From a phage: a stretch of DNA of 64,000 nucleotides. A model generated the notes under the pieces. The model was not told the DNA's origin, made no database searches, and was given only the letters and a program-made list of their open reading frames with translations. A program made the translations under genes and the position numbers. This document shows positions 16,408 to 52,585 of the stretch, piece by piece; within the stretch, counting starts at the first letter, position 1, and every line of letters starts with the position of its first letter. The stretch lies in the sequence record NC_135729.1. The stretch is one strand, 5' to 3'.

Positions 16408-16806
16408 TTATTCTTCCTGAAAAGCAACGATATCATATGAACTTGCAGACGATCCTGGTGAAGAATGACTCCAGTCTAGGTCATCAGAGTAGTCAGCGTA
16501 CTGTGCACCACTACGTAGTTTATATTTTACCCACTTACCTGGTGCAGGGTTTTCACCACCTTCCCATACTTCCCAGCCTTCTGGCAGGCCGTCCTGGGGA
16601 TAGTCATCCACCTCACTAATAATCTTAGGGTTTGGCACCAAGATCCCTGCAGGCTCTTCCTTACGGATAAGTGTCCACACAACGTAGGTGTCTGAGCAGG
16701 CGCATGATAGCAAAGTATATCCACTATTCAGAACTTCTGCAAGCTCTTTTTCAGCATCTTCCAATTTGGTTAAGTGGTATTGGATAACCTTCACACCTGT
16801 AATCAT
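16408..16806 (-). CDS. hypothetical protein
   Basis: 132-aa ORF. Confidence 0.4.
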   Translation of the reverse strand: MITGVKVIQYHLTKLEDAEKELAEVLNSGYTLLSCACSDTYVVWTLIRKEEPAGILVPNPKIISEVDDYPQDGLPEGWEVWEGGENPAPGKWVKYKLRSGAQYADYSDDLDWSHSSPGSSASSYDIVAFQEE

Positions 16807-17108
16807 CAGAAACCTCCCACTTCTTCAGCAAATGCAGCTGCTGTCGTCGCCGCATCCAGATAGGACTCTAGTTCACGGGCTGCACGTTTGTAAATTGAGT
16901 GTCGCAAATCGTTTGGCAGTTGGTGGAAGTCCACCTCTTCACCGTTGTGGTAAACATGCACATCGGTAATTTGTCTAAATCCGTAATAGTCAACATCAGA
17001 ATCACGGCACTCCGGGTCTGGCAACTGGACAGCTGCCTGAGCTTCTACAGTAAACATATCGTCAAGTTCGAAATCGATTTCAAAAGTGTATGGTTTATAA
17101 CGTTTCAT
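16806..17108 (-). CDS. hypothetical protein
   Basis: 100-aa ORF; AAGGAAG RBS. Confidence 0.4.
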   Translation of the reverse strand: MKRYKPYTFEIDFELDDMFTVEAQAAVQLPDPECRDSDVDYYGFRQITDVHVYHNGEEVDFHQLPNDLRHSIYKRAARELESYLDAATTAAAFAEEVGGF

Positions 17109-17168
17109 CGTTTAGTGCTTCCTTAGTTTTTGTGGGGAGGAGTGCCTCCCCTTTAGACTCACATCTTA

Positions 17169-17510
17169 CTACTGAAGGTCTTCAGAGTCAAGCTCAAAAA
17201 GAATCAAACTGTGCATACCTGCAGAGAGATCAACACACCCTGCAACAATAAGGGTCTGATAGTAAGGTTCAGCACCCTCGATGTCTTCGTTAAAATCTAC
17301 AACAAGGTAGTCACCTTTGTTAAAGGTGTATTTGTCCGATGTAAACGCAAAACCTGCCCAGTCCCCTACTGCAGGATCTTTATCAGTCACCTTTGTTAGC
17401 AGTAGATCTTTTTCACGAGATCTTTTAGTAAAATCGTGAATCACAACATCCTTCTCTTCAGGAGTTGGATTGCCGCACACGTAGTTAACTATATTTCTCC
17501 ACAAACTCAT
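17169..17510 (-). CDS. hypothetical protein
   Basis: 113-aa ORF. Confidence 0.4.
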   Translation of the reverse strand: MSLWRNIVNYVCGNPTPEEKDVVIHDFTKRSREKDLLLTKVTDKDPAVGDWAGFAFTSDKYTFNKGDYLVVDFNEDIEGAEPYYQTLIVAGCVDLSAGMHSLILFELDSEDLQ

Positions 17511-18877
17511 ACGTCCCCCTCTTCGGCTCTGGTTTCAAAATCTTTCCTGACAATTTTGTCTAAGTCAGGGAATGTTGTATTGTAAAACTCTACGACTCGC
17601 GGGTCAACAATAATGTCAACTTCTCTTAGTGGACGCAACAAGTTTATTCCTTGTATTGTCTTAACTCTACTCAAAGCGACATACGTCATTCCAGGAGAGA
17701 AAGCTCCGTTCTTTCCAAGATCTAGGTTGTAGCAATCTAACGTAAGTCCTTGACTTTTATGAGATGTTACGGCGTACCCAGATTTCAGAGGGAGTTGCTT
17801 GTATGACCCGATCACTACCCTCTCTATAAACTTCTCCATCTTCCTTTCTGCAATGTTGTATCTCTGAGATGGCTTATACTCGTTATTTTCCCACAACCTC
17901 TGCTCTATGTCAACCTGTGTTCCATCTTCAAGCTCTACCACCACCGCCTTGTTCTTAAATTTAACAATTGTGGCACGTGTTCCGTTAACATAATAAGGTA
18001 CTTTGTGCGTCGGGTCAACATCGTTGGCGGTTATCATAACTTTCATGCCAATTTTCAACTTCATCTCCTGCTCAACTGGCAGGGTGGAGGGAAACTTACC
18101 CTTCATTTCACCAGTGTATACCTTCTCTGGGGCGTTGATGGCATCATAGAACCTTCTGTTCACTTCCTCTGCTTGTTTGTTGGTAGCGCAAATTGTGAGA
18201 GCGTCTGTTGGTACACCGCCTTTGTAACAGCGAGCATTAAGTTCTGCTACAACCTCTTTTATGCGACGACCCTCACGAACACAGTTGAGCATTGTGGCAA
18301 ATCGAATAGACTCCTGTCGGAACTGGTCTATTAGGGCTATGTTGTGAAGGTCCAGCTCTTTCCAAGATTCGGTATAGCAACATAGGTCTGTGTGGTAGAA
18401 GTTGAAGTAGGCCTCCTTCTCCATAGAAGAGACAACAGGAGGTGCCTGGTAAAAATCGCCAAACAATATGACCTGTATGCCTCCGAAAGGTTTGTCATTT
18501 TTTCGAAGGAAGCGGAGTTTCCTATCCATCTCTATAAACTTATCAGCACGGATCATAGAGATTTCATCGATAATTAGGATGGTAAATGCCTTGCTTTTCA
18601 AAGGCTTTGCTGTTTTTGCCCTTATTGCAGTCCAGTCAGACTCCATGCTCACACCTGCTGCAAGATCGAAGGTTCGGTGTGCTGTTGCTCCATTAACGTT
18701 TAAAGCGGCTACCCCTGTCGGGGCAACCGTTATGCAAGAGTCTCCATACATTGACTGGATCATGTTGATGAGGTACGTCTTCCCACAACCTGCGGGTCCT
18801 GAAACGAAGACATTCTCCCCACTCATGATTGCAACAAGGGCAGCATCTGTGCCTACATCATACTGCCCTTTTTCCAT
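17507..18877 (-). CDS. SF1B helicase, Dda/RecD/Pif1-like
   Basis: Walker A VFVSGPAGCGKT; Ia ITVAPTGVAA; Walker B LIIDEISMI; III ILFGDFYQAPPV; V YAVTSHKSQGLTLD; VI ALSRVKT. Confidence 0.85.
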   Translation of the reverse strand: MEKGQYDVGTDAALVAIMSGENVFVSGPAGCGKTYLINMIQSMYGDSCITVAPTGVAALNVNGATAHRTFDLAAGVSMESDWTAIRAKTAKPLKSKAFTILIIDEISMIRADKFIEMDRKLRFLRKNDKPFGGIQVILFGDFYQAPPVVSSMEKEAYFNFYHTDLCCYTESWKELDLHNIALIDQFRQESIRFATMLNCVREGRRIKEVVAELNARCYKGGVPTDALTICATNKQAEEVNRRFYDAINAPEKVYTGEMKGKFPSTLPVEQEMKLKIGMKVMITANDVDPTHKVPYYVNGTRATIVKFKNKAVVVELEDGTQVDIEQRLWENNEYKPSQRYNIAERKMEKFIERVVIGSYKQLPLKSGYAVTSHKSQGLTLDCYNLDLGKNGAFSPGMTYVALSRVKTIQGINLLRPLREVDIIVDPRVVEFYNTTFPDLDKIVRKDFETRAEEGDV

Positions 18878-20082
18878 TACGCCTCCTCGTAAAGAATGTC
18901 GATAGTGTTACCGTCTCGGTCAACCACGTATTCAATCGGGTCTCCGTCCTTGCGTGCTTCCGGAGCTACCACAATCTCATAGCGGCATGCACGGCACTTA
19001 GCGCTATTGTGTTGGTATGGCACACTAACCACATCTGCAGGGTCAACCATGACAGTCATTACAGTGCCGTAGCTCTTTGCATACTCCTTGCTGGCGCAGT
19101 GTAAGCCATAGGAGCACGCAGCTTCAGGATCATCCTCTACAAAGTTACGAGGCATGGATACAAAAGCACCCTGGTATTGTGGAACTTTACCACTGTGCCA
19201 ATCCACCCACTTGCTGCCGTTAAACTGAACCCCTTTGTAGCAAATGATTCGACCATCTTCTGCAATCTGGATATCGTTGGCCTGCATAAAATCGTAGAGC
19301 ATGTTTACAGATTTTGCAGAAGGATTGCGTAGCAGGCGAACGAGGAATTTCACATAGCGGTCATCCAGGGTTCCGTCTGCATAGTCTTTCTCAATTTTCT
19401 TTGCAATGGTGGATCGCATCTCTACACCGTAGTAGTAGAGCTTACCATCTTTCATGATCAGGTTGTCTGCAAGTGTGGTGAACTCATTCTTGCGTTCCAG
19501 CCAGACAAGGATTTCACCAATTGCCTCATCATATTCCTGAACAGAGATATGGTCGAAGACTTTCTGGTAAACTTCCTCACTTTCGCTGCGGCGAATTTCA
19601 AAAATGCCTTCGTTGCAGGTGATCTGGAGGAGTTCCCCACAAATAACTACTAAAGGCTCGATGCTTCGAGTCTGTTGCTGAGACACACTGCTAACCACCT
19701 CCAGCACCGGGTCTTTGACTTCTACTAAAGGTTCTTCTGACTTGATTGCCACCCCAGTGAACCCCACACCGTGAACAACACACAGTGGGTATACCACGCC
19801 CCAACGTTTAACGGAACCTTCGCCTAAGTCTAAGATCATGGCGTACTTACCATTATCTTCCAGCCCATATCGAAATAGACGAGCCTCTTCACGGGTTTCA
19901 AAATCCTCACGGGTGTAGCAGACGCTGTCACGGTCAGGATCGAACAATTCTGGGGCACCCACTGCCAGTGTCCAGGTTGTGTCACCTTTCTCAATGGCAC
20001 ATGTGAAACCCTTCTTCTCAAGTTCTGCACGGCGGTCTCGTGCTTCTTTACGAGTTTTGAAATGTTCGTAGATGAAAATCAT
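18877..20082 (-). CDS. putative rIIB-like protein (by position next to rIIA-like gene)
   Basis: 401-aa ORF immediately downstream of the GHKL ATPase; no motif recognised, assignment by synteny only. Confidence 0.3.
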   Translation of the reverse strand: MIFIYEHFKTRKEARDRRAELEKKGFTCAIEKGDTTWTLAVGAPELFDPDRDSVCYTREDFETREEARLFRYGLEDNGKYAMILDLGEGSVKRWGVVYPLCVVHGVGFTGVAIKSEEPLVEVKDPVLEVVSSVSQQQTRSIEPLVVICGELLQITCNEGIFEIRRSESEEVYQKVFDHISVQEYDEAIGEILVWLERKNEFTTLADNLIMKDGKLYYYGVEMRSTIAKKIEKDYADGTLDDRYVKFLVRLLRNPSAKSVNMLYDFMQANDIQIAEDGRIICYKGVQFNGSKWVDWHSGKVPQYQGAFVSMPRNFVEDDPEAACSYGLHCASKEYAKSYGTVMTVMVDPADVVSVPYQHNSAKCRACRYEIVVAPEARKDGDPIEYVVDRDGNTIDILYEEA

Positions 20083-20092
20083 AGCGGTCTCC

Positions 20093-22075
20093 TTATTTGG
20101 TGTTATTCTTTGTGTCGATCAGTTCACGGTATTCAATCATAGCAGGAGTGTCCCAATATTTCAAGCCTACATGCTTCAAAAGTGGGTATTTCTTTTCCAA
20201 TCTTGCAATATAGGCCTTCCCGCATTTAACTCGGTTGGCGATTAAGATTTTGGCACGATGATTTAGCTCACTGTGCTTCCACGTGGTGTTACCTTCCCAC
20301 TTGTGGAAATGTGGCCGATAATTTCCAAAATCTTGCATGGGAATAATTTTCCCTAATTGTCTATACAGGCTGTCATAAGAAGTCTCATTTGCTGCACGGG
20401 TCAGTAAGAATTTCCAAGCATCCTCTTTCAACAGGTGCTCCACATTCTTCTCTGTAACATACTGGCAATCAGGATCAGTCCAAAGCAGACGAGATTCAGA
20501 TACCAGATACAGATCTTCACCTTCAGGAATCTGAAGTGCCGCACGCACACGGTCATAATCTTGCTGGTAGATGTTACTCATCTGCCCCAGCCAACAACTT
20601 CCACGTTGGATATCACCCTCATAAGGGATGCAGTGTTTAATCTTCCGGAACTCTGCCTTAGTAATACGCTCACGGCGGAAGTAACCATCCTTCTCAAGTT
20701 TTTTAACCCAATAGCCCGGCTCATAACGAGTTTTTGTTTCACCTTTCTTGACAGGTCGGCGAGGGAGCTCTGATAACAATTTGACCGTATCTGCAAAGAA
20801 CGGGTGGTGTGCCGCTTCTTTAAACTCTTCCACCAGATCCGTGTTACGGCAATAGAAAACGTTGCGTCCGGTGATCTCGCTTAAGTAGTTACACTTATTC
20901 CGGTTATATTTGCCGTCTCCGTCGTTAAATACAAGGTATACACCTCGTAAGAACTCCGACTTTCCGTAACGAGCATAGCCTATGCGGCCTTTATTTAAGC
21001 CGCCAGCGAAAATTTCACAATCGCCTAAGTCGCCAAGCCCTGTTTCTTCCCAACGGTTCCACATAAAGTTCTTGCCGAAGATGTGTCCGAACACTCCACT
21101 ATTCTTCATCATTTCACGTGCTTCTGCGGAGGTTTTTGCCGTCTCCAGTTCTGCAACAACTTCTGCCCCGCGAAGACGTATACCTTCTTTGACAAATGCC
21201 TCCAGGCGATCCTGGAATCCACCGTCGTCATGGCCCTCTATGGTCCATTCACGCCCAGGGTTAATATTGCAATCCCCAATAGGAATTTCCACGCAGATTG
21301 CAGGGTAATCGGTCAATGTCTCCAGGAACTTGGAGCGGTAAGGTTGGTGACCCATCACAACACGGCTCTCATCAGAACTGGTATAACCTTTCAGGATGGT
21401 CATTTTCCAGCCATCCTTCTCGTAATGATACTGTGCCTCAACCTTGTCACCTTCTAACATCTTACTGGTCATGGGATCGGTGACGATGAACGGAAACTTC
21501 GCATAGCGTAAGCACGATGCAATAGCAGTGCGATATTTCAGGACATGCTCTTTCTTAACATGGAACTGAACTTTTACCCCGTTGTGCTCTTCAGTCTTCC
21601 GCTCGCGGATCTTGGTAACGTTTGGGATACCCTGATCCAAGAACAATAGATATGTGCTTTCAATACCATTGTGCACACTGATAACATCGAAAGTGTCCAC
21701 CATGCTGAACGGAGCCTTTGAACCAACACCTTTATTGCCAACCAGAGCGTTGCTGTTGCGCTTGGTTGACTCACCGAGGTTCATGAAAGTGTTGCGGACC
21801 ATCTCTTCTGACATGCCCAATCCAACGTCCTGCACAAAGAAGTATGGTTCAAGGTCTGTAGGAGAGTGAATAATGATCGGCACATCACCCCGTCCAGACT
21901 CAACATGAGAGTCCACAGCATTGAAGATTGGTTCACGGCAGCTTGCCAGCACCTTATCTTCGTAAATCCCTTTAATGATTAGCCCAAAAGTCTCTTTGTT
22001 AAGAGAAATTGAGCCCCTGGTGACCTCCATATTTCCGGTTAGCACTGCTTTAGTTTCATTACTGTTTACAATCAT
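20093..22075 (-). CDS. rIIA: rIIA-like protein with N-terminal GHKL (HATPase_c) ATPase domain
   Basis: Bergerat-fold boxes: N-box REPIFNAVDS, G1 DVGLGMS, G2 GNKGVGSKAPF; 660 aa, comparable to T4 rIIA. Confidence 0.55.
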   Translation of the reverse strand: MIVNSNETKAVLTGNMEVTRGSISLNKETFGLIIKGIYEDKVLASCREPIFNAVDSHVESGRGDVPIIIHSPTDLEPYFFVQDVGLGMSEEMVRNTFMNLGESTKRNSNALVGNKGVGSKAPFSMVDTFDVISVHNGIESTYLLFLDQGIPNVTKIRERKTEEHNGVKVQFHVKKEHVLKYRTAIASCLRYAKFPFIVTDPMTSKMLEGDKVEAQYHYEKDGWKMTILKGYTSSDESRVVMGHQPYRSKFLETLTDYPAICVEIPIGDCNINPGREWTIEGHDDGGFQDRLEAFVKEGIRLRGAEVVAELETAKTSAEAREMMKNSGVFGHIFGKNFMWNRWEETGLGDLGDCEIFAGGLNKGRIGYARYGKSEFLRGVYLVFNDGDGKYNRNKCNYLSEITGRNVFYCRNTDLVEEFKEAAHHPFFADTVKLLSELPRRPVKKGETKTRYEPGYWVKKLEKDGYFRRERITKAEFRKIKHCIPYEGDIQRGSCWLGQMSNIYQQDYDRVRAALQIPEGEDLYLVSESRLLWTDPDCQYVTEKNVEHLLKEDAWKFLLTRAANETSYDSLYRQLGKIIPMQDFGNYRPHFHKWEGNTTWKHSELNHRAKILIANRVKCGKAYIARLEKKYPLLKHVGLKYWDTPAMIEYRELIDTKNNTK

Positions 22076-22572
22076 TTATTGCGCTCCTTGTAGTAGATAT
22101 GACTCCCGAATTGAGCTGTCCTCTGCATCTTTTTTGCCCATTTCGGTCGTACTTTGGTTGTATGGTAGTGTGTTGCTCCACCTGTTATGTCCATAGCCAT
22201 GTATGCAACATGGTTGTTATTATAGACCTTTAGAAGCATCTTTGCAAGACTTTTAGCGTGATCCCATGAATCTTTTTCTGTCACCTTAAAAGTTTTGCCG
22301 TGGTTTGTCCACGAAAACTGGTTAGGTTGGTAGACAATCTTTCTTATAGTGTCTGGGTATTTGGGGTGAGATTTCCTGTTTAGTGTGGCAAACCCTGATG
22401 CCAGCATACCCATCGTGCCATCCCCTCTAGCCTCCCTGTAGATATTGCATGCCAGAATGTTTTCCTTAGTATCTGAGGGCTTGCAAGTATGATATACTTT
22501 TTGTTTTGGTGCTGCAACAACAGGCAGCGATAAAAATGCGCTCAAAATAATAGCAAAGATCTTAATTTTCAC
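22072..22572 (-). CDS. secreted cell-wall hydrolase, SleB/Hydrolase_2 family (candidate lysin)
   Basis: signal peptide MKIKIFAIILSAFLSLPVVAAP; family signature CNIYREARGDG...ATLNRKSHPKYPDTIRKIVYQPNQFSW. Confidence 0.75.
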   Translation of the reverse strand: MKIKIFAIILSAFLSLPVVAAPKQKVYHTCKPSDTKENILACNIYREARGDGTMGMLASGFATLNRKSHPKYPDTIRKIVYQPNQFSWTNHGKTFKVTEKDSWDHAKSLAKMLLKVYNNNHVAYMAMDITGGATHYHTTKVRPKWAKKMQRTAQFGSHIYYKERNK

Positions 22573-22582
22573 AATAACTCCA

Positions 22583-22610
22583 AATAGAAAATCCCCGCCG
22601 AAGCGGGGGA
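22583..22610 (-). terminator. rho-independent terminator
   Basis: minus-strand CCCCGC-TTCG-GCGGGG hairpin followed by ATTTTCTATTT; same hairpin at 48721-48736. Confidence 0.65.
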
Positions 22611-23011: not shown

Positions 23012-24196
23012 TTAAGCTTTAGCTAAAATGGCGCTAAACTCTTCACCAAACTCTTTTACAATCTTCATCAGGTTTGGGTACGCTTTGATCAGTTGAGCAA
23101 CGATCTTGTCACGCCCTTTACCGATAAGCAAGGCATTTCCTAAGGCGTTAGGTTTCATCATCGCCATAAAGACTGAGAATACAAAATCTCGGTTCTCGTC
23201 CTTGAAATTTTCCCAAAGGAAATCGAGGAAGTTTGCCACACAGCTAACAAGATCTTCGTCAGAGATACTTGCATTTTCCATCATATTACGAATAGCGATA
23301 CAACCTTCAGACCCAAGAATCCACAAGATGTCTGGCTGCTTAGGCCCTACGTATTCTTTGCAACCCCCTGCCATAATCCGACCGATTTCCGGTAAATTGC
23401 GTTTCTTGGTGTGGTAGGTCCAGATCTCTACCGCTGCAGTGTGACCAATAGCACCTTGCAGAAGAACACGGGCCATAGCGTCAGAAATAATACCGCTGTC
23501 AAAATCGTGCAGGATATCAGATGCAGCAACCCAAGATCGCGGTGTGGCAAAAGATGGGCAATTAATCTCAGCCATAGCCTCATAATTATCAATAGCTGAC
23601 GGAACTCTTTTCAGATACCCAATTACAGAGGAGTGCACTCCATTAAGGAATGCGTAGTCCTCAATAAACACCTCTGCATTGCTTGTAACTTCTACAATGA
23701 TAAAACGGTTAGCCAGAGGGGCTTCAAGCGCCGAAAGAACCGCACCATCTGTAGAACGGTTACCTGCAGCTACAAAAACAGAGCCCTTAGGGAATGCATA
23801 GGTGCCGCACTTGTGGTCGAGCATAATTTGCATTGCAACCTTTTGCAGGTAACTATCTGCATGAGTAAGCTCATCCAGAAATATAATTCCGCTCCAGTCC
23901 GGATCTGCAGGCCAGAATTCTGGAATTGCAAACACTGTACGTGCAGTTCCATCCGCTTCTACAGGGATAGGTAGCCCAGATAAGTCGGCAGGATCTTTAT
24001 CTGACAGTCGCACGTCAACCAGGTTGTCATCTCGCTCACCGAACATATTATCGGCGATCTGCTTCATCACCTGGCTCTTCCCCACGCCCATTGGTCCTAA
24101 AATCAGGACAGATCGGTTATGACGTTGGGCAAACTGAATGATAGCTGGCAACTCACGGACAGTGATTTGACCACTTTCAAATACGTTTCTTGACAT
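23012..24196 (-). CDS. AAA+ ATPase, MoxR-like (AAA_5)
   Basis: Walker A LILGPMGVGKSQ; Walker B IIFLDELTHA; sensor-1-like VFVAAGN; LANRFIIVEV. Confidence 0.75.
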   Translation of the reverse strand: MSRNVFESGQITVRELPAIIQFAQRHNRSVLILGPMGVGKSQVMKQIADNMFGERDDNLVDVRLSDKDPADLSGLPIPVEADGTARTVFAIPEFWPADPDWSGIIFLDELTHADSYLQKVAMQIMLDHKCGTYAFPKGSVFVAAGNRSTDGAVLSALEAPLANRFIIVEVTSNAEVFIEDYAFLNGVHSSVIGYLKRVPSAIDNYEAMAEINCPSFATPRSWVAASDILHDFDSGIISDAMARVLLQGAIGHTAAVEIWTYHTKKRNLPEIGRIMAGGCKEYVGPKQPDILWILGSEGCIAIRNMMENASISDEDLVSCVANFLDFLWENFKDENRDFVFSVFMAMMKPNALGNALLIGKGRDKIVAQLIKAYPNLMKIVKEFGEEFSAILAKA

Positions 24197-25808: not shown

Positions 25809-26692
25809 ATTAAACTTGTATCAGTATACTTCTTTAATGGGTAAATATCCTGTCCATAGATGCAATCATTAAACACCTCATCTACCCAAAGGCTACACTT
25901 ATATCCCATCATTTCTAAAACGCCCATCTCTTCTTCGGTGAACTTATCACCGCTCTTGCAAGATGTCAATACCTCATTCTGTACTCTTGCTACCTCGAAG
26001 CGGTTATTGGCAATATCACTATTGGCAATCAAATACTCACCTAAAGGGTGTGCAGCATTAAAGATGCACAGTGGACGGTTGACGTAATAGTCTCCCGGTG
26101 TATAAAAATTGTTGAGATCCTTCACCAGAACATTCTTATCAGTCACTTCATTTATAACATCATGCATATCACACATCTTTATATGTTTGAGGATTCCATC
26201 CCCCATCACAAAATAAAAACTTGCTGAGACACTCTCGGCATAGATCTTACTAGATCCGTTGTAGTTGTATTTTACGCGAATGCTTACAGGGGTTTTGCCT
26301 GTCGCGTTAGCCATCATCCAAAGGAACGGAAGTTCAAACCTCTCCTCTGAGGAAACAAAAGGTGAAGTTGCCAGAGATCGGAAACCTCCAGAAAAGTTGA
26401 AAGTTACAGAGCCGCTCCGGCGATATGATACCGCATATTCTACTTTTATATCGACGTACCCATTGGAATAGGTGTGTCCTTCATTATCTAAATATGTCCA
26501 CTTATCAGATCCGGATACCAGCCTACGCTCAATAACCTTCATTACTATAGGAATTAGCGGGTTGGTACAAACCGATTTTGAAGTAGCTTTATCATCTAAA
26601 GCCTCGTAAATTGCAGAAAGGATGTCTCCAGCTGAAAGATTGGTTGTTATATCCTGTTGCCACCGCGTACTAAAACTGTTAAGATTTGCCAT
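25793..26692 (-). CDS. hypothetical protein (first gene of leftward operon)
   Basis: 299-aa ORF; GGAG RBS; directly downstream of the divergent promoter. Confidence 0.45.
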   Translation of the reverse strand: MANLNSFSTRWQQDITTNLSAGDILSAIYEALDDKATSKSVCTNPLIPIVMKVIERRLVSGSDKWTYLDNEGHTYSNGYVDIKVEYAVSYRRSGSVTFNFSGGFRSLATSPFVSSEERFELPFLWMMANATGKTPVSIRVKYNYNGSSKIYAESVSASFYFVMGDGILKHIKMCDMHDVINEVTDKNVLVKDLNNFYTPGDYYVNRPLCIFNAAHPLGEYLIANSDIANNRFEVARVQNEVLTSCKSGDKFTEEEMGVLEMMGYKCSLWVDEVFNDCIYGQDIYPLKKYTDTSLICARV

Positions 26693-26728
26693 GAGTGCTC
26701 CTATGTTAGTTTTCTTTCGAATGGGTGC

Positions 26729-26757
26729 ACTATATCGGAGATTTAGAGTAAAGTCAA
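26729..26757 (-). promoter_or_regulatory. sigma70-like promoter (leftward)
   Basis: minus strand TTGACT (plus 26752-26757) - 17 nt - TATAGT (plus 26729-26734). Confidence 0.45.
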
Positions 26758-26770
26758 CACGTTTTTGATG

Positions 26771-26799
26771 TTGACATCTGTTGAGACAATTGATAAGAT
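26771..26799 (+). promoter_or_regulatory. sigma70-like promoter (rightward)
   Basis: TTGACA (26771-26776) - 17 nt - TAAGAT (26794-26799); its -35 and the leftward -35 are the two arms of the inverted repeat GTCAACA-N9-TGTTGAC (26753-26776). Confidence 0.5.
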
Positions 26800-26830
26800 T
26801 TCTTCACTTACAGAGCACGAGAGACAACTC

Positions 26831-27808
26831 ATGAATCTTGAAAAATATTATACACCAGAAGAGTTAGAGCGCCTGCTCAAAAAATATAGACGCAAACAGA
26901 ATAATGCACGGAAACGAGATATAGAGTTCGACCTGTCGTGGGAAGAATACCTACTATTTGGTAAAAAACTTTTAGGGGAAGGGGTATGCGACTACACCCT
27001 TATACCTTTCGACATGCACACAGATGAAAACGGACTGGGAAATCCTTTCTATCCATCTCTGGAGCGGATAGATGATGAAGGTCCTTACGCAATTGATAAT
27101 TGTTGTGTGGTAGGGTTGAGGTGCAACGCTCTGAAGGACTGTCTGGTAGATAAAAAGACTGCAATATTGATAAAAGACAAAACTGATCGAAAAATTGTCC
27201 AGCAGATGATGCTCCACCTGAGCGAAGAGCGTATGGAGAAATTGAAAGGTGATTATACTTTCGAAGATTTCATCTTGCAATACGGGACAGAAGAAGATAA
27301 ACTAGCACTTTTTGACGAAGAGGAAGAAGATATGTCACCAATGCAGGACTTTAAAAATTTCATGGCTGATCGTGCAGCCAACAAACACATTTCAGATATC
27401 GTAAACGAAACTGTGACAGAAGAAATTGAAGAACAGAACTCTGAAGAGGAAAAAGAGCCTCAGGAGGTCGAAGAGGAGATTGCAGAAGAGGTTCCTGCAC
27501 TGCCTGATGATGTTGAGGTTGCTAAGGCTTACACTTTCTATTGTCAAACGTTCTACGATGCAGGTATGAAAGTTGATCTGTCGTTCAGCCAATTTAAGAG
27601 TTCATATATTCGCAAATGCTGTGCTTTAACTGGTGAACGTCTCGGAGCTGGACTTAAACCGCTGTTGGTGACCGACTGGAATAAAGGTTTCACTAAAGGA
27701 AACTTTATGGTAGTATCTCCAATTATGGAAAAAGCCATGACGGATCTTATGAAGACCACTCGCATGACAATGACTGAGTTGGCAGGTATTTTCAAACACG
27801 TTAAATAA
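26831..27808 (+). CDS. protein with two degenerate HNH-like (DRID-type) modules and an acidic linker
   Basis: N-module PSLERIDDEGPYAIDNCCVVGLRCNALKD and C-module KPLLVTDWNKGFTKGNFMVVSPIMEKAM both resemble [28 protein letters not shown] of the HNH endonuclease at 4306-4929; acidic stretch EEEEDMSP...EEIEEQNSEEEKEPQEVEEE; ATG at 26831 preferred over the TTG at 26765 that lies inside the promoter. Confidence 0.4.
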   Translation: MNLEKYYTPEELERLLKKYRRKQNNARKRDIEFDLSWEEYLLFGKKLLGEGVCDYTLIPFDMHTDENGLGNPFYPSLERIDDEGPYAIDNCCVVGLRCNALKDCLVDKKTAILIKDKTDRKIVQQMMLHLSEERMEKLKGDYTFEDFILQYGTEEDKLALFDEEEEDMSPMQDFKNFMADRAANKHISDIVNETVTEEIEEQNSEEEKEPQEVEEEIAEEVPALPDDVEVAKAYTFYCQTFYDAGMKVDLSFSQFKSSYIRKCCALTGERLGAGLKPLLVTDWNKGFTKGNFMVVSPIMEKAMTDLMKTTRMTMTELAGIFKHVK

Positions 27809-27820
27809 TGACAGGGGCCA

Positions 27821-29302
27821 ATGGCCCCTTCTGGAGTTTTAATGGATAGCAGAAGTTCAGAAATCGTTGCCTCACAGAAAGATGATGCCCTGAGAATGTT
27901 GCAGGCTGCACGTATGTATCTCCTTGAAAAGCTGCCGTTTTATGGCACACTGCTGTCAGGGTTGCAGTTCGTAGAAAACCACACATGGTGCTCCACCATG
28001 GCAACCGACCATAAACGCATCTATTACAGCCCTGAGTTCATTATGGGATTGGCTGATGAACGCAAGGCTATTCTTAAGGCCTCTCTAACTGACAAGCAGT
28101 TTGAGATGGCTGAGGTTTTCTATTCCCCCAAATCTGTGAAAGAGGTGGCCTTTCTTCTGTCGCATGAGGTGGGGCATATTATCTGTGATCACCTGGTCCG
28201 TGGTAAAAGCTTTGAGCCGGAACTGTTCAATATTGCTTGTGATCACGTTATCAACACAGGCCTTGTGGTTGACTTTAGCAAACCTCCTTGTGTTTTCTTC
28301 TCGAAGGGGAAAAGCACTACGTTCGTGAAAGGTAAGCCTTTTGGCTTCTTAGCCAGCTGCTACTGCGACATGAAGTTTCATGGATGGATTGCTGAGAACG
28401 TTTATGCAGTTCTTGATAAGCAAAGAGATCAGAATAACGGTAAAAGTAAGAGCGGTAAAGGTGAGAACTCTCAAGAAGATAAGCGACAAACCGATGATCA
28501 CATGAGTGGTAACGGTGGCACCAGTGATGATCTTGGAAAGGCTATGGGGTATGATCAGCCACAACCTGTAATCAGTCAATCTGATAAAGATCAGGCCATG
28601 CAGGACTCTGGTGACATGCTGGAGGCAGCAATGCAAGCTTCCGGAGGCCGTTGCCCTGAGGCGGTTCGTGAGTTTGTCAAGAATAGAGGTAAGCCTGTAA
28701 TTAATTATATAGACATCATCAAGCAACGCATGTTGTCTAAACGAAAGGCTGAACTGACCTACAGAAAACCTGGTCGCCGATCTGGGTCTTTGACCAGCAC
28801 AATGCGAAAAGTTGGGGCTATAAACAAGAACCAGCACGTTATTGTTCCTGGTCGTAATCCGGAAAACACCATAGATATTGTGGTAGCTTTAGACGTTTCT
28901 GGCTCGATCTCTCAAAGAACTTTAAAGAAAATGTTCAATGAAATCACCGGATTGTGCAATCTGTATAAAGAGTTTAAGGTTACAATGTTCTGTTGGTCAA
29001 CTGAAGTCGGAGAGGTTAAAGTATACACTCGCGGCAACATAGACGAGATGATCAACTATGAGGTACACTCAACATGGGGCACAACAGCTGCTTGCGTGTT
29101 CGAGTATCTGGATGCCAACATACCGAATGCAAAAGATGTCATCGTCCTGACCGACCTATACTTTGAGCATAACTTTGAACAAAAGGCTGTTGACAACAAG
29201 TGGAAAAAGTACGATACTTTATGGGTTCTCACCGAAGGGTATAATAAAAATTATATCCCTAGCTTTGGGAAAACTGTGGAATTAATCGAGTACGCTAAGT
29301 AA
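27821..29302 (+). CDS. putative metallopeptidase (HExxH) fused to vWA domain (COG3864/DUF2201-like, MoxR partner type)
   Basis: HExxH LLSHEVGHIICDH; vWA MIDAS motif VVALDVSGSIS (DxSxS); 493 aa. Confidence 0.7.
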   Translation: MAPSGVLMDSRSSEIVASQKDDALRMLQAARMYLLEKLPFYGTLLSGLQFVENHTWCSTMATDHKRIYYSPEFIMGLADERKAILKASLTDKQFEMAEVFYSPKSVKEVAFLLSHEVGHIICDHLVRGKSFEPELFNIACDHVINTGLVVDFSKPPCVFFSKGKSTTFVKGKPFGFLASCYCDMKFHGWIAENVYAVLDKQRDQNNGKSKSGKGENSQEDKRQTDDHMSGNGGTSDDLGKAMGYDQPQPVISQSDKDQAMQDSGDMLEAAMQASGGRCPEAVREFVKNRGKPVINYIDIIKQRMLSKRKAELTYRKPGRRSGSLTSTMRKVGAINKNQHVIVPGRNPENTIDIVVALDVSGSISQRTLKKMFNEITGLCNLYKEFKVTMFCWSTEVGEVKVYTRGNIDEMINYEVHSTWGTTAACVFEYLDANIPNAKDVIVLTDLYFEHNFEQKAVDNKWKKYDTLWVLTEGYNKNYIPSFGKTVELIEYAK

Positions 29303-29308
29303 GAGAGG

Positions 29309-29575
29309 ATGTTATTTATGGCAACAGAGGTAGTAATTAAAGCTGAACGCCCAGTTAAAAAAGCTATCAACACGTTCCCTGTGGGAACCATTGTGAGCAT
29401 GATCACAGAGTCAGGTCGTGTATCTACGCTGCTGATTGTGAAATCTGCATGTTCTTCTTGTGTGTGGGCTTACGATCTGGACAAGAAAGAACTAAAATAT
29501 TTTGTTGGGGAGCTGAAAGCAACCGAGCTCGATGCTCGTATCGAAGTATTTGGTGAAACTATGGAGGAAGAGTAA
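29309..29575 (+). CDS. hypothetical small protein (paralog family, member 1)
   Basis: FPVGTIVSMITESG... ; 4-nt ATGA-type overlap with next gene. Confidence 0.4.
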   Translation: MLFMATEVVIKAERPVKKAINTFPVGTIVSMITESGRVSTLLIVKSACSSCVWAYDLDKKELKYFVGELKATELDARIEVFGETMEEE

Positions 29576-29838
29576 TGACCACGAAAATCACTATTGCAGA
29601 ACCGAAAGCTAACACGCAACCTATCGAAAAATTTAAATGTGGTGAGGTGGTAACATTTACACCAGATAATGAAGATGCTAAGATTTTCGCCATGGTCACA
29701 GCTGAGTGGATGTGCGACAATACCACACAGGTTCTGCGTTTTGACACCTATCTTACCGATGAAATCAGGAACGACAAGATCGTGACTGGTGTTGATACTG
29801 AAATTATTTTCTACAAGAGCTTTTTAGAGGGTTTCTGA
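29575..29838 (+). CDS. hypothetical small protein (paralog family, member 2)
   Basis: FKCGEVVTFTPDNED... similar architecture to neighbours. Confidence 0.4.
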   Translation: MTTKITIAEPKANTQPIEKFKCGEVVTFTPDNEDAKIFAMVTAEWMCDNTTQVLRFDTYLTDEIRNDKIVTGVDTEIIFYKSFLEGF

Positions 29839-29839
29839 T

Positions 29840-30073
29840 ATGGCAAAAATTCGTAAATTATCCAGCAATCAGGTTGTGAAAGACTTTGAATCTGGAGAGA
29901 TTCTGTATGTTCGTGATGCAGATGACGAAGTTGAAGATCTTGTTATGTTGGTGGGGCACGCTGAGGACGGATGCATCCAAGCTGTTTTTCTTGAAACAGC
30001 TATGGTGCACTGGATAGAGCTGGACTTGAAAGCACGAAAACCTAAAGCAGAAATCCTGATTTACGAAGATTAA
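29840..30073 (+). CDS. hypothetical small protein (paralog family, member 3)
   Basis: FESGEILYVRDADDE... Confidence 0.4.
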   Translation: MAKIRKLSSNQVVKDFESGEILYVRDADDEVEDLVMLVGHAEDGCIQAVFLETAMVHWIELDLKARKPKAEILIYED

Positions 30074-30089
30074 CAAAAAGGAGATAGCC

Positions 30090-30539
30090 GTGTTGAGCAA
30101 GCGTGAATGCGACAGCATTAGCCTGAATTCTTATAAGAAACAATGGTTTGGGGTAGAAGTTTGCCGACTGCGGCTAGGCTCCTACCTGAACTTCGTTTAT
30201 TATGAGAGCGATAGTCGTATCGTTTCTTATGAAGTGTTCTACACTAAGAACACCTTCGAACTGCGCCGTAAAGTGGATGGTGGGAGAACTACCCCCCAGA
30301 ATAATTGGGAAACTATCCTACCTACAGATGTTATAGGAAGTCCCCTGAATGTATCTGAAGATGAAAATCTTATGGTTCATGCTATGATGGGACTTGACAG
30401 CTTAGAGCTGGCGATCTATGATATGTCCATCGAAGCAGTTAAGCTGGACTACATCGAAAACACTTTAGAGGAAGGTATCAAGAAGTTTCTCAGTGAGAAA
30501 TTAAAAGACCACTTTCATAAGGAGCTATATCTGTTATGA
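30090..30539 (+). CDS. hypothetical protein
   Basis: 149-aa ORF. Confidence 0.4.
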   Translation: MLSKRECDSISLNSYKKQWFGVEVCRLRLGSYLNFVYYESDSRIVSYEVFYTKNTFELRRKVDGGRTTPQNNWETILPTDVIGSPLNVSEDENLMVHAMMGLDSLELAIYDMSIEAVKLDYIENTLEEGIKKFLSEKLKDHFHKELYLL

Positions 30540-30781
30540 AGACCCGTAAAGAACGTAACAAAATTTTACCTGGAGCTCTCGAACACCTGATGAAGTGCAG
30601 ATCTATTTGGCACTCTGCCAAGGAAGGGCAGAAGGTGGTTGTGGTTAGTGACAATACCAACCCGTTTGGAGATTATACCACCATGATGGCCCCATATGTC
30701 CGTGATGGCGTTGTAGAAGTGGTCCCTTACAACGGTTTGCATGAACGGCACTTTGAAAGCACTTTGCTAGTGGAGCTATAG
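30536..30781 (+). CDS. hypothetical protein
   Basis: 81-aa ORF, 4-nt overlap. Confidence 0.4.
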   Translation: MKTRKERNKILPGALEHLMKCRSIWHSAKEGQKVVVVSDNTNPFGDYTTMMAPYVRDGVVEVVPYNGLHERHFESTLLVEL

Positions 30782-30783
30782 TC

Positions 30784-31350
30784 ATGGCGGTCAATGTGGC
30801 TTACAACACAGGAAAGCTTGACAGAGACATTGGGTGTCTTGTCCTTTCAGATACAGAAGAGTATTGGGGCTATGGGTTGCTGTCAGACCCACACCCGAGC
30901 AACCTTGTATCAACGGTGCTATACCGCTACGACCCCGTGCCAACTGTACACGACAAAGACATTCACGACCTTCGGATCAAGTGTCTGGAAGATCTGCTGA
31001 ACAATGGTTGCAATGATCTGCGGGTAGCCAAAGAGAAGCTTACAAACATTCACAAAGAGGAAGTGATGAGCACCCTCAGTAAGAGATCAGTGCACAAAAA
31101 GATGATGCTGAACTTTGCAATGGGTATCTACATGGATGGGTATAAGGGCGGGGACCCGATTCTCAAGCTTCGCTGCCCAACACTGTGGGAAAGGGTGGTT
31201 GACAGTAAGGACGGCACTGCCCTGCTTGAGCTTCACACTGCAGGTTGGATATGGCGGTATGTTGATGGATACCCTCTATGGGCATGTGGGCCTGGGGAAT
31301 TTGTTGACAGGCCTAGTGCGGTGGTGGACTTGCTATTGCAGTTTGAATAA
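30784..31350 (+). CDS. hypothetical protein
   Basis: 188-aa ORF. Confidence 0.4.
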   Translation: MAVNVAYNTGKLDRDIGCLVLSDTEEYWGYGLLSDPHPSNLVSTVLYRYDPVPTVHDKDIHDLRIKCLEDLLNNGCNDLRVAKEKLTNIHKEEVMSTLSKRSVHKKMMLNFAMGIYMDGYKGGDPILKLRCPTLWERVVDSKDGTALLELHTAGWIWRYVDGYPLWACGPGEFVDRPSAVVDLLLQFE

Positions 31351-31405
31351 AAGTGAGATATAAGGTGTTCATGCACCTACCAACAATACAACAAGAGAGA
31401 CTGAG

Positions 31406-31681
31406 ATGACGAAAGAAGAAGCTGACGTATTAGACTTTGCACTGGAGGCTACGCAAGAGGCTCTGGTGTTAGCTTGGAAAATGAACCAGCGTGCTGCAGA
31501 ATGCAACCGCCGAATCAATGAGATTCTGGGCATGTCTATGTATGATTTCACTATGCATGCCGGAGAGATTCCTGAATTAACTGCAGAGATGAATGATCTT
31601 GACAATAAGATTAATATCATTCTGAAGACAGCAGAAACAACTCACCAAACCGCCCGTAAATTTATCAACGAGAAGGTGTGA
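31406..31681 (+). CDS. hypothetical protein
   Basis: 91-aa ORF. Confidence 0.4.
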   Translation: MTKEEADVLDFALEATQEALVLAWKMNQRAAECNRRINEILGMSMYDFTMHAGEIPELTAEMNDLDNKINIILKTAETTHQTARKFINEKV

Positions 31682-32157
31682 ATATGGACTACAGCTACTG
31701 CGGGGAAGAAGTTCCTTTTAACTACAGCAATCTTACCACAAGCAATCCATATGAGACTCGCCACGGCACGCACATCATTGCCATTGACTTTGATGGAACG
31801 TTTAATGCGAGCCCTTTCATCTTCTCCCGCCTGATCAGGGATCTGAAGAAGGAGGGGTGGACAGTCTACCTTGTGACTTTCCGATTCATTACTCAAGACA
31901 ATGTAGACATTGAGTATTGGCGCAAGGAGCTTGATGTTGGTGTGTTTTATACTGGAGGTGTTCAGAAGGCAGCCTATCTGGCTCAGTTTGATATCTACCC
32001 AGATATCTGGATTGATGATTCTCCGGCATGTATTCCGGCTAAGAATCAATTAGAGTTTGCAATGAAGGAGATTAAGTATAAGTCTGAAGCAAAGCGTAAT
32101 GGATGGCCTTTTATTATTGAAGATTACCCAGATCCTGAACCGGAGAAAGAGCCATGA
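31678..32157 (+). CDS. HAD-superfamily hydrolase, putative 5'(3')-deoxyribonucleotidase-like
   Basis: HAD motif I HIIAIDFDGTF (DxDGT); motif IV-like IWIDDSP; about 160 aa as in NT5C-type nucleotidases. Confidence 0.5.
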   Translation: MNMDYSYCGEEVPFNYSNLTTSNPYETRHGTHIIAIDFDGTFNASPFIFSRLIRDLKKEGWTVYLVTFRFITQDNVDIEYWRKELDVGVFYTGGVQKAAYLAQFDIYPDIWIDDSPACIPAKNQLEFAMKEIKYKSEAKRNGWPFIIEDYPDPEPEKEP

Positions 32158-32324
32158 GGCTAAGATATCATTACCTGATGTGGAAGTTATATCATGGTGC
32201 TGCTAAAGCTTACCGCACCGTGTTTGGTAATGACAATAACTGCATTATGTTACACCTTACCGCCATTGAACATCACAATGAGTGGATTCGTGCAATCGTA
32301 ATAGGTGACAAAGATTTTAAGTAA
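32154..32324 (+). CDS. small hypothetical protein (below ORF-track threshold)
   Basis: 56-aa ORF MRLRYHYLMWKLYHGAAKAY...; ATG overlaps the stop of the upstream gene (ATGA), suggesting translational coupling. Confidence 0.3.
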   Translation: MRLRYHYLMWKLYHGAAKAYRTVFGNDNNCIMLHLTAIEHHNEWIRAIVIGDKDFK

Positions 32325-32354
32325 AGTATTGCTTTCTAGATGGAGACTGATTAA

Positions 32355-32735
32355 ATGTGCAAGTGTAAATCCTATAATTGGAAAGTGAAAGGTGCCAAGC
32401 ATCAAAATGTTATCGTTGATGTGCCTAAAAAGCTCCGTGACGGCAAAAAACGTGTGTGCCTTGATAAGTGCATGGCTAAGCCTATCATGAGTCTATGGGC
32501 GGCAGGATTGAAAACGCTAAACTGCTGCTGTGGTCATAACAAAGATGTTCCAAGCATCATTATCCCAGAAGATGCAGATCCTAAAGCTTATGCCAAAATA
32601 CTGACCCGCTATCCCAGCACCTTCCTGATCGGAAAATGGTGTCACGATGAACTTCAATGGTGGATAGCCTATGGTAGTATAGGCACTACTTTTGGCTTCC
32701 CAGCTTTGTCAGAGCGCTATGTCAAAGTGTCATAA
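32355..32735 (+). CDS. hypothetical Cys-rich protein
   Basis: MCKCKSY...CLDKC...NCCCGHNKD; GGAG RBS. Confidence 0.4.
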   Translation: MCKCKSYNWKVKGAKHQNVIVDVPKKLRDGKKRVCLDKCMAKPIMSLWAAGLKTLNCCCGHNKDVPSIIIPEDADPKAYAKILTRYPSTFLIGKWCHDELQWWIAYGSIGTTFGFPALSERYVKVS

Positions 32736-32860
32736 TAGAATTTAAGGCCTCAAACGAGGCCTGTGCCTTCATAAATTGCCCTACCCTGTGTGATTACCCT
32801 CCTGAACAAAATACCTCCCCAGAATCGCTTAAAATTAAACTTGACACCAACACCAGATCT

Positions 32861-33307
32861 ATGTATGATTATCTCACCAACCGAACAGAGGAGATCGTCA
32901 TGGATAATCTTGCGGATGTAAATGTCGAAATTGTTAAACTAAAGTTCTTAGGCTTTCGAGACCCTTATTCTTTAACAGCTATACTAATGGACACTCACTT
33001 CACACCAGGTAAAGAGTACACTGCCTTCCGTTATATTTGCGGAGATCACGAATCAGCTTATAGTGTGAATACAAACCTCGGTGAGGGATATTTCATCAGA
33101 GATATCACAGATCACTTGTGGGGTATGTGGGAGTTGGTGGAGGAAGAGAATAAATCCCTTCCTAAAGAGATTTGGGTGCACACCTTCCACACAGGTAAGT
33201 TTGGAGGTACGGAACATAAATCTATCCACTATGATGAAGAAAGTGCCATTAAACAACAAGCTGTGCTTGGTGGATCTGTAGAAAAATTTGTTAAATGCGA
33301 GGACTGA
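32861..33307 (+). CDS. hypothetical protein
   Basis: 148-aa ORF. Confidence 0.4.
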   Translation: MYDYLTNRTEEIVMDNLADVNVEIVKLKFLGFRDPYSLTAILMDTHFTPGKEYTAFRYICGDHESAYSVNTNLGEGYFIRDITDHLWGMWELVEEENKSLPKEIWVHTFHTGKFGGTEHKSIHYDEESAIKQQAVLGGSVEKFVKCED

Positions 33308-33310
33308 GAA

Positions 33311-33511
33311 ATGGCTGATTTTTGCAAAGATTGTTCTGAAGAGTTGTTTGGTCGTGACTGCGGAGATCTGAAAGGACTGATCACAGAGGACCAGTGGAAG
33401 GAAGGTTATGCGGCCCCTGTTATCTGTGAAGGCTGTGGTTACACCTATGTCGATCATGAAGGTAAGCGTGTCCAGCCGTCTGAAGATGGGTCGTGTTGGG
33501 AATATTACTAA
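33311..33511 (+). CDS. hypothetical Zn-ribbon-like protein
   Basis: CKDC...CEGCGY cysteine pairs; WKEGYAAPVICEGC motif shared with 15913-16395. Confidence 0.4.
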   Translation: MADFCKDCSEELFGRDCGDLKGLITEDQWKEGYAAPVICEGCGYTYVDHEGKRVQPSEDGSCWEYY

Positions 33512-33550
33512 TTATAAAAAGAAAGGGGCCGTCTGGCCCCTTTTTATTTG
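33511..33550. terminator. bidirectional rho-independent terminator between convergent operons
   Basis: GGGGCC-GTCT-GGCCCC hairpin (33525-33540) flanked by AAAAAGAAA upstream and TTTTTATTTG downstream. Confidence 0.7.
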
Positions 33551-33557
33551 CCTCCTG

Positions 33558-51700: not shown

Positions 51701-52585
51701 ACAATCCTCACTCAGTGTCATTGTTGCCGGGCCATAGTATGCACCAACCAACAAACCATACTTACCAGCTACATAACTAAGATCTGCACCGCAAGCTTTC
51801 AGCATTTCTGCCATAATACTTGCTGGGGCCTCATCCATGTCAAACTCACCGTTAATGGTGTAACGGCGCTCACTGGTTCCGTCTGCGTTTTTTACCGCCT
51901 CGTCGCATATGTTGGCAGCCTCCTTGAAGGACTCCCAGTTGATGGTTTCGTCAGGACATTTAAGGTACGTTCTTAAATAGTCTAGGATCACCAAGGCAGC
52001 GTTATTGGTGTACACCTCTTTACTGATACGAGGATCATAGCATTTTTTACCAATCTTGACGAGTGTAACGTTTGGCAACCCAAAAGGAAACTTGTTAGGG
52101 TCAAACCTGAAGCTGGCACGTAGCCAACTGATCCCTCTACCTATCATGTCAGGTGACCATGATGGGCAGTGTGTACCCATGAAAGGATCAGATGTTTTTC
52201 TGTCGTTATGTAGCTCCCACGATACCAGATCTCCATACGAGGAAATAGGATTACCGTCGATAAGTATATCTTCTATACCTTCCAGAGGGTGATTGGCAAG
52301 AACAATAGCACAATGGAGGGTTCTGTCGCTATCCTGCTCCAAAAACGCAAGCAATCCAGATGTGCGTGTCTTCCCATACACTACAGAGCAAGGTGCAGCA
52401 GAAGATCTGAGAAGATTTTGTCTATCTTGCTGACTTCTGTAAGATTTGTTGCCCTCAAAAATCTTATCCAAAGTTCTGGTGGTCACAGTGTTCAGGCTGT
52501 CAGCCAGAGCTGCCTTGGATGCGTTCCAGTCATAACTTGAAGATCTTGCAGAAGCAACGATGTTATCAATCATTGCAATTGGCAT
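48746..52585 (-). CDS. host-specificity / central tail fibre protein with lambda gpJ-like FN3 and distal regions
   Basis: GYFAITLIPHS and YYWYIRTTNAFGSSQFVE vs lambda J GYFQITATPH and YYFYIRSVNTVGKSAFVE; NKYVAGIQLGMEG...FMVSANNFAVYNPGNG vs KHYVAGIGLSMED...FLVAANRIAFIDPANG; central repeat array (TDLLN-containing heptad-like units). Confidence 0.65.
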   Translation of the reverse strand: MPIAMIDNIVASARSSSYDWNASKAALADSLNTVTTRTLDKIFEGNKSYRSQQDRQNLLRSSAAPCSVVYGKTRTSGLLAFLEQDSDRTLHCAIVLANHPLEGIEDILIDGNPISSYGDLVSWELHNDRKTSDPFMGTHCPSWSPDMIGRGISWLRASFRFDPNKFPFGLPNVTLVKIGKKCYDPRISKEVYTNNAALVILDYLRTYLKCPDETINWESFKEAANICDEAVKNADGTSERRYTINGEFDMDEAPASIMAEMLKACGADLSYVAGKYGLLVGAYYGPATMTLSEDCVCGEVKIYPEASFDKRSNTITGRFTSPTKGYSETDFPSVFVPEWIEKDGERKIIDIDYRFVTSPYQAQRVSAIFLRRARAGRIIEVTCNMRGFKFKPGRYVTMDLPSIGIVGQEMRVLEWEFTKKGGVKVKLRQDAKEWNDATGQLPDSGDVDIPISPSGVAQPQNFRYSVLQAGEVTHGVLAWDNVGTYAQNIVQVRKNGEIVWTAQTVEQFVRVEGLTKGSYTATVVATSYKGGVSPEAYCEFNIQAPEAPVSVEVKQGYFAITLIPHSRDLASVSTQYDFWTSGMTRLPDTSDATVTSKATRMGVGSTWTSEGLQNDKVYYWYIRTTNAFGSSQFVECAARCYTSIEDLMPQIDAEFKKTETYKELMSTLDSSIEEVENRVTELNKYMDGRVDEAFQQLGDRIGAVVTETTQKFEDVNGNITALDRKLVAAQNKFTNDLNTESGRLASLIETTNKATTDLLNKKTEALDEKLVAAKGELVEQIEGVESGYLAGDKTLDGKINTQRTELDASILSTNQATVDLLNRTSETLDQKISQTNATVSKNYTTLDGKITTAKTDLNTLIANTNKATTDLLNQKTSALSEQITSARGEISTNKQAIDALDGKLTSTKTALDATISDTNKAAVDLINGTASAIRQELAVAKQEIIDDVGDVSEIRAAVATTSKAVTDLEGKVNAQWGTKIQVDSAGNKYVAGIQLGMEGSGGQVQSYFMVSANNFAVYNPGNGTATLAFAIKNNQAFLKDAFIENGTISSAKIAQEISSNNYDGNGYHKYGWYINKNGHAQFMDVWVKGNINASSGNFTGAVNATSGTFRGDVYANNGSFRGTIDATGGTFRGRVEASVIRANQFEGAIVAHRTYGDCAPVYNSRQRVCRWRWRYVDNVSGQGKNVTFFFKLNGTLAGSQLNAWIAGHQILAGKKYFNDNNGMCAVGITGLGEQTIDIVIEIYTPWSTSNVTGVTISCPTVIVSRSNSSFQGPWNESHD

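Follow-up and report, generated by a model that had tools for sequence, protein, structure and literature searches.

Bacteriophage T4's genes rIIA and rIIB belong to a family whose biochemical action is still unsolved about 70 years after Benzer, and it is in this family that the general interest lies. Closer relatives of the pair described here are already known: rIIA and rIIB have been annotated in Vequintaviruses since the rV5 genome record, and for the pair of phage EdH4, which is 98% identical, an anti-RexAB phenotype is on record. We analysed a 64,000-nucleotide (nt) stretch of phage DNA (sequence record NC_135729.1), hereafter the window, in which a sequence-only reading had likened a 660-amino-acid (aa) ATPase and a 401-aa partner open reading frame (ORF) to T4 rIIA/rIIB. 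Judged by sequence, the two genes are the orthologous rIIA/rIIB of a Vequintavirus (rV5-like) Escherichia coli myovirus and have been annotated already. There is one real difference from T4, namely that lineage-specific repeats at the N-terminus of rIIB replace a helix-turn-helix (HTH).

Identity of the rII pair

The two genes and their junction were located as follows.

20093..22075, minus strand: rIIA gene, ORF of 660 aa plus stop codon, ATG start
18877..20082, minus strand: rIIB gene, ORF of 401 aa plus stop codon, ATG start
20083..20094, minus strand: rIIA-rIIB junction, a 10-nt spacer (20083..20092) with the ribosome-binding site AAGGAG (20089..20094)

The limits of both ORFs and the 10-nt distance between them, as claimed in the sequence-only reading, were confirmed exactly, and each ORF has hundreds to thousands of homologues, so that neither is a product of chance. 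The Shine-Dalgarno-like AAGGAG (20094..20089) overlaps the rIIA stop codon TAA (20095..20093) and lies 6 nt before the ATG of rIIB.

Comparison with the T4 reference sequences (AF158101) assigned both proteins clearly. The 660-aa protein matched the PHROG family phrog_612 'RIIA' with an E value of 3.5e-124, aa 1-657 aligning on profile positions 1-723 of 725, and the 401-aa protein matched phrog_609 'RIIB' (E 1.3e-61, aa 132-375); T4 rIIA and T4 rIIB themselves were placed in the same two families. BLASTP aligned rIIA with T4 rIIA at 28% identity over aa 1-190 (E 4e-21) and rIIB with T4 rIIB at 37% identity over aa 172-371 (E 4e-39). The profile comparison of both proteins with T4, which the sequence-only reading had proposed as its check, gave hhalign probabilities of 100% for rIIA (E 1.3e-39, aa 1-305 against T4 1-309) and 99.9% for rIIB (E 1.3e-33, aa 151-373 against T4 87-306). 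The proposed T4-like pair was thus borne out by family, by BLASTP and hhalign, and by the annotation of rV5 and its relatives, while the view that the partner had no recognisable motif did not hold, as profile and BLAST tools recognise rIIB clearly. The rIIA protein combined a near full-length profile match, the GHKL boxes and a co-oriented rIIB directly downstream.

Across the rII region, about 120 phage records share 91-99% DNA identity with the window, and nearly all of them are Escherichia Vequintaviruses. The window rIIB and the 'rIIB protector' of rV5 (ORF238, DQ832317) agree at every residue (100% identity), and the rV5 record opens, by the T4 convention, with rIIA (ORF1, 1983 nt), equal in length to the window rIIA. 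The corresponding stretch of the Vequintavirus EdH4 has 95.4% DNA identity to the window, with 650 of 660 residues (98%) identical in rIIA (EdH4_00063) and 391 of 401 (98%) in rIIB (EdH4_00062). The geometry of 1983, 10 and 1206 nt is identical in Bas54, navn and EdH4, and the record of phage navn annotates the same run of MoxR ATPase, hypothetical protein, cell-wall hydrolase, RIIA, rIIB and helicase. The pair is annotated in dozens of records, and in the BASEL phages both proteins are named 'membrane integrity protector'. The best DNA matches to the rII region, at 94-99% identity, were 16 unannotated records labelled 'Campylobacter phage' (host C. jejuni), including MG065646, MG065647, MG065654 and MG065666; since the remaining matches are all E. 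coli or Shigella Vequintaviruses, this host label looks doubtful.

Several indirect observations suggest that the two proteins act as a pair. In every Vequintavirus relative examined, the genes lie closely side by side. The pair is also very widespread, at about 2,600-2,900 of 50,697 phage records, and the distributions of the two genes are almost the same (rIIA homologues in 2646 records and rIIB homologues in 2877), the counts being equal for Pseudomonas (117/117), Streptomyces (93/93), Aeromonas (81/81) and Acinetobacter (73/73). A third line is the fusion of both into one protein in phage RB43. Knockdown of either RIIA or RIIB has moreover been reported to give the same phenotype (PMC11879866).

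Domain organisation of rIIA and rIIB

The following parts, all on the minus strand, were delimited in the two proteins.

21506..22000, minus strand: rIIA Bergerat-fold (GHKL) ATP-binding domain, aa ~26-190
21911..21934, minus strand: rIIA N box, E48-x3-N52-x2-D55
21815..21829, minus strand: rIIA G1 box, D83-V-G85-L-G87
21722..21739, minus strand: rIIA G2 box, G113-NK-G116-V-G118
20096..21160, minus strand: rIIA C-terminal half, aa ~306-660, with no assigned fold or function
19774..20076, minus strand: rIIB N-terminal module, aa 3-42 and 53-103, a tandem of two beta-alpha-beta-beta repeats
19660..19773, minus strand: rIIB linker, aa ~104-141, low confidence and poorly conserved
18958..19659, minus strand: rIIB conserved core, aa ~142-375, common to T4 rIIB and all rIIB-like proteins

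The complete N, G1 and G2 boxes noticed earlier in the 660-aa protein are indeed present, and their residues were all invariant across 24 aligned homologues, down to 19% identity. The Pfam family HATPase_c_3 scored 35.6 bits against a gathering score of 25 (E 1.2e-8); NCBIfam gave only sub-threshold GHKL matches, and a sequence search of the PDB found nothing significant for rIIA (best E 0.11). When the rIIA model was compared with PDB structures, the matches were confined to the N-terminal ~300 aa, with none beyond. The C-terminal half lies inside the phrog_612 match, yet hhalign against T4 rIIA as a single sequence left it unaligned; it was modelled confidently, the predicted local distance difference test (pLDDT) being mostly 80-93.

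The AlphaFold2 (AF2) model of rIIB, built on an alignment of 20 sequences, had a mean pLDDT of 74 and a predicted template modelling score (pTM) of 0.53. In this model the N-terminal module shows the secondary structure E-H-E-E twice, and the internal repeat in the sequence reached a local score of 44, compared with 21.3 +/- 4.0 in shuffled sequences, none of 500 of which reached 44. The motif F-x-[ST]-R-x-[ED]-A-R...W-x-V is kept in both repeats across 20 homologues, the invariant residues being R11, A14, R15 and W37 in the first repeat and F61, R64, E66, R68, F70, R93, W94 and V96 in the second. At least 80% of the window rIIB was covered in 130 of the 2877 phage records with an rIIB match, and the repeat module is confined to Vequintavirinae-like phages. 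No HTH match was found in the window rIIB and 19 aligned relatives, the HTH being a trait of the T4 type rather than of the whole family. When the N-terminal 115 aa alone were compared with 1.84 billion representative proteins to find the module in other contexts, two close relatives only were returned; a single sequence this short is too weak a probe for the outcome to count as a negative. The SPOR domain (PF05036) was considered for the repeats, but the match to aa 8-42 (E 0.0014) was sub-threshold and the label is not supported. Automated naming in the record of phage YP-6 (OQ376695) uses 'SPOR domain-containing protein' for the rIIB orthologue and 'ATP-binding protein' for that of rIIA.

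The linker that follows has a pLDDT of 23-29, and among the aligned homologues both its length and its sequence vary. A fold search of the BFVD database with rIIB gave 31 significant matches, all 31 of them rIIB proteins; the PDB sequence search gave nothing significant (best E 0.16), and the core is without a solved structural relative. NCBIfam holds no family for rIIB, and the Pfam accession PF26926 is precomputed on all rIIB homologues. A possible Cys/His cluster in the core, C323, H328, C363 and C366, is invariant among the aligned homologues. It was weighed as a metal site; T4 has Met at the position of C363.

Membrane association of both rIIA and rIIB has been reported for T4. In the window proteins, no convincing transmembrane segment was detected by the maximal 19-residue Kyte-Doolittle mean, which was 0.84 in rIIA and 1.69 in rIIB, the latter in a stretch unconserved in the family. 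Any membrane association of rIIA or rIIB would thus have to be peripheral.

Anti-exclusion function and rival explanations

In the work of Adler et al. (PMC11879866), RIIA or RIIB was targeted by knockdown in the phages T4, MM02, EdH4, SUSP1 and N4. The knockdowns are reported to lower the efficiency of plating when the E. coli host expresses lambda RexAB, with no effect on Rex-free cells, so that the window-type (EdH4) and the T4 pairs are both reported to counter RexAB. The counteraction of Rex-type exclusion, which the sequence-only reading had carried over from T4, therefore has published support for proteins 98% identical to those of the window, and by analogy with EdH4 an anti-RexAB role is expected of the window pair as well. 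In Bas54, both rIIA and rIIB were classed as 'Non-essential' on E. coli K-12 (HIDEN-SEQ preprint, 10.1101/2025.11.20.689424). Wein et al. (PMC10312443) showed T6 RIIB to be toxic by itself and to be the trigger of a Lysobacter CARD/gasdermin system, and the escape mutants losing rIIB became RexAB-sensitive. The rIIB protein thus counters one bacterial defence and sets off another, CARD/gasdermin immunity.

We consider it very probable that the window pair is dispensable on ordinary hosts and needed on RexAB+ cells, with rIIA as a GHL ATPase and rIIB as its partner. RexAB stops infection by depolarising the membrane, and in such a scheme it would do so unless rIIA and rIIB are present. The rIIA protein would be a GHL-type ATPase composed of the Bergerat fold and a second, transducer-like domain, in which binding and hydrolysis of ATP may drive a conformational or dimerisation cycle. 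The rIIB protein would work with rIIA as a partner, possibly in a physical complex, and the two together would block the activation or the action of RexAB-type systems, membrane depolarisation included. Because two beta-alpha-beta-beta repeats stand in place of the T4 HTH, what the N-terminal end of rIIB binds probably differs from T4.

Several points weigh against this scheme. The functional evidence comes from other phages. The N-terminal module of rIIB is unlike that of T4, so the specificity may differ. The EdH4 result is stated collectively for the five phages in the text of its source (PMC11879866). The target range of RexAB was very narrow, at 2-3 phages, in the BASEL phenotyping (PMC8594841), and QatABCD has been proposed as the target of the Bas63 rII homologues (preprint, PMC11482910). 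Given this narrow range and the QatABCD proposal, RexAB may be only one of several targets, and may not be the natural one of the rII pair. A further reading takes the N-terminal module of rIIB as a specificity 'adaptor', by which the lineage counters different or broader abortive-infection systems than the T4 pair does; we regard it as rather unlikely. If it were true, Vequintavirus rIIB could evade systems that sense rIIB, CARD/gasdermin for example, or set them off in a different way, and the common engine would consist of the rIIA ATPase with the universally conserved core of rIIB.

The sequence-only reading had also left room for an unrelated GHKL module. Such a module could be an enzyme of the MutL, Hsp90, topoisomerase, MORC or kinase type, or a phage-borne defence system, lying beside a second ORF by chance. 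This is highly improbable. Profile matches to other GHKL families remained far below their cut-offs (17.5 bits against 455 for the NCBIfam HSP90 equivalog and 20.9 against 50 for sacsin), and Pfam detected in rIIA only the generic HATPase_c_3, with no Toprim, MutL C-terminal, Hsp90 middle or C-terminal, or kinase dimerisation domain. The PADLOC scan was negative, with only TmtA for rIIA (E 0.005, 12.6 bits) and no match for rIIB. The full-length phrog_612 match, in a family that includes T4 rIIA, groups the ATPase with rIIA by sequence, and the partner ORF is an unambiguous rIIB, not a member of an unrelated family.

Two other readings accept the homology and assign the pair a different task. 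Nucleic-acid regulation could be the main job, rIIB acting as a transcription factor and rIIA as a DNA-acting ATPase, with Rex resistance as a by-product. T4 rIIB orthologues are listed among specific transcription factors (Iyer et al., PMC7824862), the N-terminus of T4 rIIB matches HTH families consistently, most structural neighbours of rIIA are ATPases that act on DNA, the rII genes are surrounded by replication genes (helicase, primase/helicase, methylase), and in one record the orthologue is called 'putative DNA-binding rIIA protein'. However, Vequintavirus rIIB has no HTH and its N-terminal repeats match no DNA-binding family, and the EdH4 pair is still reported to counter RexAB; what is conserved in rIIB is its C-terminal core rather than the HTH, and both rII genes are dispensable without Rex. 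We therefore give this explanation little probability. Even less is given to control of lysis timing, perhaps together with the SleB-like hydrolase encoded next to rIIA and with the rIIB repeats as SPOR-like binders of peptidoglycan. PHROG and GenBank use the name 'RIIA/RIIB lysis inhibitor', the hydrolase gene overlaps the start of rIIA, and the weak Pfam SPOR match (aa 8-42, E 0.0014) is echoed by one record's name for the rIIB orthologue; the case for a lysis-timing or peptidoglycan role nevertheless consists of legacy names and that failed match.

Gene neighbourhood in the window

The genes and signals next to the pair were as follows.

22072..22572, minus strand: SleB/CwlJ-type cell-wall hydrolase (Pfam Hydrolase_2, E 2.1e-19)
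17507..18877, minus strand: Dda/Pif1-like superfamily 1 (SF1) helicase (phrog_325, E 6.4e-112; Pfam PIF1, E 1.1e-32)
23012..24196, minus strand: MoxR-like AAA ATPase, two genes upstream of rIIA (phrog_1297, E 1.9e-110)
22593..22608, minus strand: terminator-like hairpin CCCCGCTTCGGCGGGG with a T-rich tail, found by pattern match only

On the upstream side, the 166-aa hydrolase ORF overlaps the rIIA start by 4 nt (ATGA), and downstream the stop codon of rIIB overlaps the ATG of the 456-aa helicase ORF (TAATG). The genes for rIIA, rIIB, hydrolase and helicase are probably co-transcribed and translationally coupled. The hairpin sits between a 126-aa ORF and the hydrolase gene, upstream of the hydrolase-rIIA-rIIB-helicase run, and is a possible transcript boundary. 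In the EdH4 record a terminator is annotated at the equivalent position, which suggests that the run is a separate transcription unit. A promoter scan gave 23 sigma-70-like sites, no excess over the 18.2 +/- 4.2 in shuffled sequences, and no promoter was assigned.

The N-terminus of the hydrolase is hydrophobic and signal-peptide-like (MKIKIFAIILSAFLSLPVVAAP), and some records annotate the protein as endolysin; its orthologue in Bas54 was non-essential (HIDEN-SEQ preprint, 10.1101/2025.11.20.689424). The helicase orthologue bas54_0068 was strongly depleted (log2FC -6.32) and rIIA and rIIB were not, in one HIDEN-SEQ comparison table. The MoxR orthologue bas54_0063 is described in the same preprint as an anti-defence gene against the predicted system DS-28 of E. 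coli CFE311, and on this ground the rII pair and the MoxR-like ATPase may belong to a small local group of counter-defence genes.

Three genes downstream of rIIB, rV5 (ORF235) and Bas54 (bas54_0070) carry an adenine methyltransferase gene of about 1.3 kb. At this position the window has only a gap of about 60 nt (17108..17169, minus strand), as does navn, flanked by ORFs of 100 aa (16806..17108) and 113 aa (17169..17510), indicating a presence/absence polymorphism. Farther away, gene orientation switches at about 26650..26800, and the GC skew changes sign across 26001..34000. Facing sigma-70-like sites at 26757..26729 (minus strand) and 26771..26799 (plus strand) flank the inverted repeat GTCAACATCAAAAACGTGTTGAC in this region, which by the navn annotation is the divergent zone between fucosyltransferase-like and anti-sigma-factor-like genes. 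Very long minus-strand ORFs at 33558..39185 (1875 aa), 48746..52585 (1279 aa) and 54253..58068 (1271 aa) may be tail-fibre or structural genes. ARAGORN detected no transfer RNA genes in the 64,000-nt window.

Comparison with T4 and other relatives

Among the rV5-type Vequintaviruses, rV5, EdH4, Bas54, navn and HeinrichReichert carry the orthologous pair in the same gene order of MoxR, hypothetical protein, SleB hydrolase, rIIA, rIIB and helicase. There is no difference of substance in the pair, and the flanks differ slightly, by the methyltransferase gene.

T4 rIIA (725 aa) and rIIB (312 aa) share gene order, orientation and close spacing with the window pair, but the neighbours are topoisomerase genes and denB in T4 and the hydrolase and helicase in the window. 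The N-terminal ~305 aa of T4 rIIA are homologous to those of the window protein, with the same GHKL motifs and 28% identity, whereas the C-terminal halves have diverged beyond what hhalign can match from a single sequence. The window rIIB is 89 aa longer than T4 rIIB. T4 rIIB starts with an HTH, its aa 7-50 matching HTH_7 (E 5.6e-5), HTH_28, HTH_29, Sigma70_r4 and phrog_867 'DNA binding domain', whereas the window rIIB starts with the two beta-alpha-beta-beta repeats and a disordered linker. This comparison could guide mutagenesis, as it divides the system into two conserved parts, the GHL-type two-domain ATPase and the core of rIIB, and one swappable part, the N-terminal module of rIIB.

In RB43, the natural single-chain 'RIIA-RIIB membrane-associated' protein Q56C47 (1049 aa) unites what are two polypeptides in the window. 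The existence of this fusion explains why phrog_609, with 1055 profile positions, matches not only the rIIB core but also the GHKL domain in rIIA. The fold of the rIIB core is common to Q56C47 (Foldseek E 6e-17) and to N4-like rIIB (1e-10); in the latter, likeness in sequence is limited to the last ~130-150 aa of the core, and tblastn matches the 'rIIB-like protein' of N4. At a greater distance, the GHL/MORC ATPases (Hsp90/TRAP1, GyrB/ParE/phage topo II, MutL, MORC and SMCHD1) resemble rIIA in structure at 10-16% identity, and the likeness to Hsp90, MutL, topo II and MORC is one of the superfamily-level GHL fold, not of family membership.

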